Sequence record: AP019521.1
Source: Escherichia phage KIT01
Length of the DNA stretch: 64,000 nucleotides
Direction: 5' to 3' (one strand)
The translations under genes were made by a program, and so were the position numbers. The notes beneath the pieces are model-generated. The model saw only the letters and a program-made list of their open reading frames with translations. It had not been told where the DNA came from and did no database searches. Within the stretch, counting starts at the first letter, position 1, and the number at the start of each line of letters is the position of its first letter. Positions 50,925 to 51,994 of the stretch are shown in pieces.

Positions 50925-51800
50925 TCATACAGCCATTTTAGCCTTAATAGTAGGGTGTGATTCGTAACCTTTAAGAACGAAATCTTCAGGATACATCATT
51001 CCGGTAACCCAAGCCAACTGTTGTTCTGTTGTCCACTCATGGAAATCTTTATGCCAATACCGTATTTCCAGTTCACAAAGCTCTTTAGGTTCGCGACGCA
51101 ATACTTCTTGGCATTGTTCAACGTGGTTAGAATAGATGTGCGTATTGCCGCCTGAGAACACTAAATCGCCAGGAATAAGATTACACATCTTAGCTACAAT
51201 ATGCACAAGAGCGGCGTAAGAGGCGATATTAAATGGCAATCCTAAGAACACGTCAACAGAACGCTGATACCACTGGAGGTCAAGATGACCGTTACGAACG
51301 TTGAACTGGTAAAAACAGTGGCATGGTGGAAGAGCCATCTGGTTAATTTCAGCCGGGTTCCATGCTGATACGATTTGACGACGGTCATTAGGCATTTTCT
51401 TAATGCGTTCAACAATTTCTACAACCTGGTCGATACCACCAAAATCTCGCCATTGTTTCCCGTACACAGGACCCAGTTCGCCATCAGAATATCCCAAATC
51501 AACTGCTTGATTTTCATAATTCTCGTCCCAAATAGTTTTGCCTTCAGTGCGTGAACCGTGAGTACGATGACGCAGGTCATTAACGTTGGTTGAACCTGAA
51601 AGGAACCAAAGGAGCTCAGCAATACAGGCTTTCCATGCTAATTTTTTAGTTGTTACCGCCGGGAAGCCTTTAGTTAAATCAAAACGTAATTTAGTACCGA
51701 ACAGTGCAATTGTACCGGTGCCGGTACGGTCGTCAGTTTCGTAGCCGTTTTCCAGGATATCTTTAATTAAAAATTGGTATTGTTTCATTAGTTCATCCAA
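50925..51800 (-). CDS. td: Thymidylate synthase
   Basis: 291-aa uninterrupted ORF; active-site PPCHCFYQF; no intron. Confidence 0.9.
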   Translation of the reverse strand: MDELMKQYQFLIKDILENGYETDDRTGTGTIALFGTKLRFDLTKGFPAVTTKKLAWKACIAELLWFLSGSTNVNDLRHRTHGSRTEGKTIWDENYENQAVDLGYSDGELGPVYGKQWRDFGGIDQVVEIVERIKKMPNDRRQIVSAWNPAEINQMALPPCHCFYQFNVRNGHLDLQWYQRSVDVFLGLPFNIASYAALVHIVAKMCNLIPGDLVFSGGNTHIYSNHVEQCQEVLRREPKELCELEIRYWHKDFHEWTTEQQLAWVTGMMYPEDFVLKGYESHPTIKAKMAV

Positions 51801-51994
51801 GAATATGTAGAAGGATATTTGGCAAAATTAGGCTTATATCCTAATTTAACCATTTGTTTTGCTTTGCGAGTAAATCCTAAAGAACGCTCGCCTTTAAGAT
51901 ATTGTTTTGGTGTCATACGCCCTTGATGCATCTGCCGGCAAATAAAAAGGGCCATAGCATTAGGAACATCCTTAACTTTTAATTTATTGCTCAT
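51788..51994 (-). CDS. Hypothetical small basic protein between frd and td
   Basis: 68-aa K/R-rich ORF overlapping both the frd stop and the td start. Confidence 0.4.

Follow-up and report, generated by a model that had tools for sequence, protein, structure and literature searches.

A small basic ORF between frd and td of Escherichia phage KIT01: a conserved accessory gene of the phrog_9550 family on a laterally exchanged patch

The 68-codon ORF located between frd and td in Escherichia phage KIT01 (AP019521.1; the whole stretch of 64 000 nt that was analysed is called the window below) is, on comparative sequence evidence, a genuine accessory gene of T4-like phages that codes for a protein; it belongs to phrog_9550 and has been kept under purifying selection. 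It moves between T4-like phages as a portable unit, at a junction that is itself polymorphic. The explanation preferred here, in which a coding accessory gene also relays translational coupling, travels as a portable unit and specifies a protein that binds a polyanion in trans, is given a probability of about 0.55 as a whole.

Position, overlaps and expression of the ORF

The features discussed are collected in Table 1. On the minus strand of the window the genes were found in the order frd, 68-codon ORF, td, NrdA.1 homologue and nrdA. The NrdA.1 homologue (50570..50863, minus strand) is a DUF4326 protein of 97 aa that shares 68% identity with NrdA.1 of T4; phage ABTNLsp5 lacks it and has only a 129 nt gap at this place.

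Table 1. Coordinates of the ORF, its neighbours and associated sequence elements in the window.
Feature	Position	Strand	Basis
68-aa basic ORF, phrog_9550 member	51788..51994	-	translation, family match, tblastn, dN/dS, AF2 model
frd (dihydrofolate reductase), upstream gene of the operon	51991..52572	-	83% aa identity to T4 Frd (tblastn); named frd in relatives
td (thymidylate synthase), without intron, start ATG 51788..51786	50925..51788	-	MKQYQ... aligns with T4 Td from residue 1
ATGA, frd stop TGA / ORF start ATG	51991..51994	-	junction ...TACAAATGAGCAAT; upstream context as at the T4 frd/td junction
TAATG, ORF stop TAA / td start ATG, 1 nt overlap	51786..51790	-	junction ...TGGATGAACTAATGAAACAA
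~252 nt identity island (ORF and td nt 1-44), the laterally exchanged patch	51745..51996	-	sliding identity, alignment, nine-phage segment table
Nearest sigma-70/T4-early-like promoter match upstream of the frd-ORF-td block	52858..52886	-	consensus match only
Second T4-early-like promoter match upstream of frd	53148..53175	-	consensus match only

An ORF of 68 aa had been described between frd and td in an earlier note on this DNA; it was recovered with exactly the translation quoted there, as were the 4 nt (ATGA) common to its start and to the frd stop. The 13 nt overlap with td given in the same note had to be corrected. This figure traces to an upstream in-frame TTG (51800), whereas the protein start MKQYQ, found in T4 Td and in all aligned Td proteins, corresponds to the conserved ATG and leaves a real overlap of 1 nt. 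The description of the product as K/R-rich was accurate: 14 K+R stand against 2 D+E (pI 10.39), and all of the nine phrog_9550 members tested were likewise strongly basic (pI 9.8-10.6).

No promoter-like or terminator-like match was found on the minus strand of the window between frd and td, and the ORF lies inside the nucleotide-precursor operon frd-td-nrdA with no such match of its own. Only a weak Shine-Dalgarno match precedes the ORF in the window; expression of the ORF would therefore rest on the coupling proposed here. The two promoter matches upstream of frd are nearly alike (GTTTACA ... TACTAT, followed by ...ATAGCCTGGTCAAC and ...ATAGACCTATCAAC, respectively), and each of them stands 5' of a small ORF upstream of frd (52569..52832; 52888..53133).

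As the anatomy suggests, ribosomes that end frd at its TGA would restart at the overlapping ATG of the ORF by termination-reinitiation, the ORF start taking over the surroundings in which td is initiated in T4; ribosomes that end the ORF at its TAA would in turn restart at the ATG of td. Through restarts at both of its ends the ORF would relay the coupling that T4 gets by the direct ATGA overlap of frd and td. Translational coupling to both neighbours, as claimed in the earlier note, is supported by the overlaps and by the conservation of the ORF/td overlap in orthologues, where it was read as TAATG (Serratia phage 4S, pSs-1), TGATG (PhiKpNIH-6) or GTGA (CIP9).

An RNA element in place of a protein was considered and rejected: no Rfam match was obtained, and folding at both junctions was no better than that of shuffled sequences (z -0.6 to +2.0), with no sequestering hairpin. 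One hairpin of the window, in which the Shine-Dalgarno-like GGAUG of td is paired with td codons 10-13, is absent from the orthologues.

Coding status and family membership

With the phrog_9550 HMM (PHROG) the ORF was matched over its full length (residues 1-68 on profile positions 1-68 of 68; E=5.5e-45; 152.5 bits). Matches in 237 phage records were obtained by tblastn, most of them annotated as "hypothetical protein", an annotation carried in more than 100 phage genomes. A protein 100% identical to that of the ORF, encoded at the same frd/td position, is CAA7537794.1 from Shigella phage vB_SsoM_113; further GenBank entries of the family under the name "hypothetical protein" are YP_009111049.1 (pSs-1) and YP_009855949.1 (Enterobacter phage CIP9). 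The gene is thus already catalogued, as an ordinary phrog_9550 member with an identical protein in GenBank. Searches of full-text literature and of supplements returned nothing on the gene or on phrog_9550. In the records of ACG-C40 (NC_019399.1, D862_gp041) and IME339 (KNT84_gp042) the gene is started at an internal Met (42 aa); JS98 and JS10 carry no annotation of the gene, yet the full frame of 68 codons is intact in both.

In this composition an open stretch of 68 codons has a chance probability of ~0.015 per frame, and it is conservation that argues decisively for more than a chance ORF. The reading frame was kept in no fewer than five genera of the Straboviridae, and also in unrelated myoviruses. 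In alignments of 24 and 31 members every indel was in frame, and indels occurred nowhere but in the helix 1-helix 2 loop and at the C terminus. M1, G40, M48 and G52 are invariant in the 31 members, and K4, K6, V7, P11, R20, K34, F41, L51, Y53 and P55 are conserved in at least 90% of these sequences, which extend down to ~35% identity. Where dS was measurable, pairwise Nei-Gojobori estimates of omega among Straboviridae copies ranged from 0.08 to 0.27, and omega was 0.10 between two copies of the phAPEC8 type. Conservation and dN/dS in related phages had been named in the earlier note as a check; with the frame conserved and dN/dS well below 1, the option of a spurious ORF in a spacer, offered in the same place, was rejected.

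In an exhaustive profile search of 1.84 billion representative proteins 14 clusters were retrieved, 13 of which are small proteins of 42-96 aa; the fourteenth is a low-complexity repeat of 198 aa (E=4e-4). No longer protein carrying a phrog_9550 domain and no nuclease-bearing relative was found among these representatives, all true matches being 42-96 aa long.

Two variants deserve mention. In a Tequatrovirus-type copy from the contig IMGVR_UViG_2938479101_000007 (locus L020, 893-1097) the frame is shifted by a C->A change together with one extra A, by which a run of eight A is formed (AAAACAA -> AAAAAAAA); this copy reflects a sequencing error or else is a rare pseudogene. The metagenomic member P0008 (73 aa) has an in-frame, duplication-like insertion of 5 aa (TTPKH) before MTPKQ in the helix 1-helix 2 loop. 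This loop varies by up to ~8 residues between subfamilies and therefore tolerates changes of length.

Predicted fold and homology searches

AlphaFold2 was run with 31 sequences and gave a model with pLDDT 82 and pTM 0.59, in which helices span residues 13-24, 29-39 and 43-50 and the aromatic C-terminal tail touches the N-terminal segment; with 22 sequences the same secondary structure was obtained (pLDDT 75). A compact fold of three short helices, with a C-terminal tail that is aromatic, is thus predicted for the protein. Foldseek retrieved no relative of this model from the PDB (best E=6.6) and only its own orthologue from BFVD, and a sequence-profile search of the PDB gave no match. No Pfam match, including NUMOD, HTH and nuclease families, was obtained for the ORF or for any of the 31 members, and none in NCBIfam. 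With PADLOC no family was matched by four members at E<=1; its models cover defence and not counter-defence, which makes this a weak test.

Particular candidates were compared individually. A helix-turn-helix or winged-helix protein of the Cro, Xis or AlpA type was matched neither by fold nor by profile, and the winged helices of AlpA and lambda Xis were rejected after comparison with the ORF protein. Ribosomal bS21 was rejected as well (hhalign probability 0.09% against a hand-entered sequence of E. coli bS21; no match to Pfam Ribosomal_S21). For the DNA-binding domains of homing endonucleases, similarity to which had been proposed as a check in the earlier note, hhalign of the 31-sequence profile gave probabilities of 0.3% against T4 I-TevI, 0.06% against SegG and 0.6% against MobE, and this candidate was rejected. 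Together with the empty Pfam, NCBIfam and PADLOC searches and the want of longer relatives, these values of less than 1% leave the option of a mobile-element DNA-binding remnant unsupported.

Genomic context of the family

The gene was found directly 5' of td, with a stop/start overlap of 1-4 nt, in 17 of the 17 Straboviridae loci examined (Dhakavirus, ORF-carrying Tequatrovirus, Marfavirus-type Klebsiella phages, Kanagawavirus and Serratia phage 4S). In the more distant Straboviridae genera one or two phrog_1928 genes stand between frd and the phrog_9550 gene. Carriers outside the Straboviridae are Phapecoctavirus of the phAPEC8 type and three metagenomic phage contigs. Their homologues (35-47% identity) are surrounded by small early genes or lie close to genes of replication, and have a strong Shine-Dalgarno site of their own. 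Neither frd nor td was found within 3-5 kb of the homologues in phAPEC8 and at loci L008, L009, L011 and L021, and all-against-all BLAST of the neighbours revealed no neighbour family common to the six non-T4 loci.

Since these homologues sit in unrelated gene neighbourhoods, the target of the protein is presumably not specific to td. The suggestion, made in the earlier note, of a nucleic-acid-binding regulator of frd-td therefore has to be divided: the basic physico-chemistry of the family is as expected of a nucleic-acid binder, whereas regulation specific to this operon is unlikely, the distant homologues being without frd and td. We consider it a tentative assignment, of low certainty and somewhat below even odds, that the protein acts in trans on a polyanion, most likely a nucleic acid, through its K/R-rich surface. 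The strict adjacency to td across Straboviridae genera in which dS is saturated could nevertheless reflect a td-linked role after all.

A laterally exchanged patch at a polymorphic junction

The sequence of the window is Dhakavirus-like and matches Salmonella phage ABTNLsp5 best (96%). Compared with the Tequatroviruses pSs-1 and vB_SsoM_113 (Sso113), frd has 77% nt identity (pS ~0.55) and td 73-75% (pS 0.68-0.76), whereas the ORF between them has 98%, with 3-4 synonymous and 0-1 non-synonymous changes (pS 0.075-0.10). The flanks of this island are ~74-80% identical to ORF-carrying Tequatroviruses; at the rate of the flanks, four or fewer differences in 204 nt have a probability of 4e-19. The island is sharply delimited by the last difference at 51997, just upstream of the ORF ATG, and by the first difference at 51744, and reaches nt 44 of td. 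Synonymous-site constraint was rejected as its cause, the orthologues in Klebsiella, Enterobacter and Serratia phages having pS of 0.55-0.84.

The segment table of nine phages repeats this pattern. Four ORF-carrying Tequatroviruses (pSs-1, Sso113, ACG-C40 and PM107) match T4 at 94-98% in frd and, beyond nt 45, at 91-97% in td, except in a separately mosaic mid-frd segment, where the identity of pSs-1 and Sso113 to T4 is only 69%. In the ORF and td nt 1-45 the same four phages are 97-98% identical to Dhakaviruses, and T4 is only 82-84% identical to them in td nt 1-45. A Dhakavirus-type patch of ~250 nt within a T4-type backbone indicates lateral transfer by patch recombination, through which the patch has entered a subset of the Tequatroviruses, the genus of T4.

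A second mosaic segment was observed in the middle of frd (~52173..52372, minus strand; frd nt 200-400). There JS98 (locus L014) is 94-95% identical to the Tequatroviruses pSs-1 and Sso113, and the window, other Dhakaviruses, T4, ACG-C40 and PM107 belong to other allele groups (66-83%); frd itself is therefore a recombination patchwork across genera.

In T4 (NC_000866) nothing lies between frd and td, which overlap by 4 nt, in agreement with the direct overlap stated in the earlier note. By nucleotide alignment T4 is without exactly 204 nt of the window, and the insert is flanked by AATGA at both ends; the gene is likewise absent from RB69. If the DNA between these two repeats were deleted, exactly the junction seen in T4 would result. 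When a 60 nt probe across the T4 junction was used, it was recovered in many Tequatroviruses as two pieces ~416 nt apart, and the insert that separates them encodes a phrog_1928 protein of 115 aa, present in 363 phage records including an RB69-like phage. Copies of phrog_1928 at the frd-td junction were located, for example, at 1550-1897 (L027), 1551-1898 (L028) and 1501-1848 (L029). The label "putative homing endonuclease" given to one of these proteins (phage FriedrichZschokke, bas41_0068) found no support in Pfam. Marfavirus, Kanagawavirus and Serratia phage 4S have both genes, arranged as frd-1928-9550-td; the phages with both infect Klebsiella, Enterobacter and Serratia. The frd-td junction thus has at least three states, namely empty (T4, RB69), phrog_9550 and phrog_1928, and in distant genera both genes occur, with phrog_1928 next to frd.

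The idea that the ORF and the td intron with I-TevI exclude each other, through immunity or as alternative alleles, was rejected, as 58 records were found to carry both when a chimeric query of ORF and intron was used. Among the T4-like matches listed, many share an identity of at least 99% over the initial 220 nt of this group I intron, a stretch in which I-TevI begins.

Alternative explanations

Two alternatives deny the gene a present function as an accessory protein, and both fare badly. According to one of them the peptide is without function, and only the translation of the spacer, as a relay for ribosomes from frd to td, would matter, or the ORF would be spurious altogether. Stop/start overlaps conserved on both sides and a protein without recognisable family are what such a spacer would offer, but omega of about 0.1-0.25 with saturated dS, four invariant residues and ten conserved in at least 90% of the sequences, and homologues that stand alone in other phages with strong Shine-Dalgarno sites of their own leave it next to no probability, and we regard it as refuted by the pattern of conservation. 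The other takes the ORF for a degenerate homing endonuclease, or another DNA-binding remnant of a mobile element, at a former insertion site. Such an origin would suit the T4 region, which is rich in homing endonuclease genes (SegG, I-TevI, MobE), as well as the insertion/deletion polymorphism of the ORF, its mobile-element-like identity island and the endonuclease label on the alternative occupant phrog_1928 in one record. That label is, however, without Pfam support, and the ORF and the I-TevI intron occur together in 58 records; against the three T4 endonucleases the hhalign probability was 0.06-0.6%, no NUMOD, HTH or nuclease match was found by Pfam in 31 members and no longer protein with the domain among 1.84 billion representatives, and it is a complete unit of 68-96 aa that is under purifying selection in several phage groups. 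The remnant reading is very improbable and has been largely refuted.

More room is left for alternatives in which the product is a functional protein with another partner. The protein may be a host-directed accessory factor, for counter-defence or host takeover, which acts on a component common to Enterobacteriaceae and would spread between phage genera for the advantage that it gives, the junction being no more than a tolerant site of good expression in which it has landed. This would account for presence and absence within one genus, for a sharply bounded patch of 98% identity in diverged flanks, for homologues that unrelated myoviruses carry in clusters of small early genes, with a Tad2-like gene of anti-defence at a distance of up to 4.5 kb from one of them, for the absence of a recurring partner gene, and for a junction that alternatively holds the accessory family phrog_1928. 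The Tad2-like neighbour is, on the other hand, a single case and not adjacent; no PADLOC match to known or candidate defence proteins and no experimental link in the literature was found. DNA-mimic anti-restriction proteins are mostly acidic, not basic, which also counts against such a factor, and we hold it to be unlikely. A partner of Td or of dNTP synthesis, which would bind Td, another enzyme of the T4-type dNTP complex or the frd-td mRNA and tune the synthesis of dTMP, is given still less weight. Its merits are the position immediately 5' of td in 17/17 Straboviridae loci, even where other genes stand between the ORF and frd, and the inclusion of the first 44 nt of td in the transferred patch; T4, RB69 and hundreds of Tequatroviruses are, however, without the gene, homologues of 35-47% identity in other phage groups lie away from td and frd, and no conserved RNA structure was found at the ORF/td junction. 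Improbable to a similar degree is a composite scenario, in which phrog_9550 is a selected effector acting in trans (e.g. in counter-defence or host takeover) that hops between coliphage genera as a ~250 bp patch at a multi-allelic hotspot (empty, phrog_1928 or phrog_9550) inside the operon of dTMP synthesis, the T4 overlap being a secondary deletion between AATGA repeats from an ancestral frd-1928-9550-td arrangement.

Significance and comparison with known systems

For the accessory gene with relayed coupling that is preferred here the practical gain is modest, because conserved hypothetical genes of this ordinary kind number in the dozens in T4-like genomes, and small accessory ORFs at junctions of core genes, as well as mosaic patches, are typical of these phages. 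What has been added is the corrected td overlap, the evidence for coding constraint, the mapping of the inter-genus patch and the multi-state junction. Annotation may profit, as several records (JS98, JS10, ACG-C40, IME339) omit the gene or start it at an internal Met. For frd and td a fixed 4 nt overlap is usually cited, but their junction emerges as a multi-state site for accessory genes and as a clean, small example of patch recombination between genera with boundaries placed to within a few nucleotides. Should a host-directed role or a role in the dNTP complex prove true, one more small early effector might be added to the T4 repertoire.

Within phrog_9550 the ORF is an ordinary member, with a full-length match and no difference seen. 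With T4 it shares the operon order frd-td-nrdA, and at the frd-td junction the 3' end of frd and the ATGA are the same, the start of the ORF sitting where td starts in T4. The difference lies in the 204 nt interposed here, which encode a conserved protein, and in td, which would restart from the stop of the ORF (TAATG) and not from that of frd. The ATGA overlap of T4 was reportedly taken, in work of 1984 by Chu et al. and by Purohit and Mathews, as a case of translational coupling. The 115-aa family phrog_1928 occupies the same junction with the same presence/absence polymorphism and is adjacent to phrog_9550 where both occur; its sequence is unrelated, and in the two Tequatrovirus loci examined it has short intergenic spacers of its own, whereas phrog_9550 always overlaps td. 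Free-standing homing endonucleases and the td group I intron resemble the ORF in the precise insertion polymorphism and in near-identical sequence within diverged flanks, but the ORF is too small, and has neither a nuclease domain nor similarity to their DNA-binding domains. Ordinary patch recombination, between phages that infect the same cell, accounts for its spread better than homing would.
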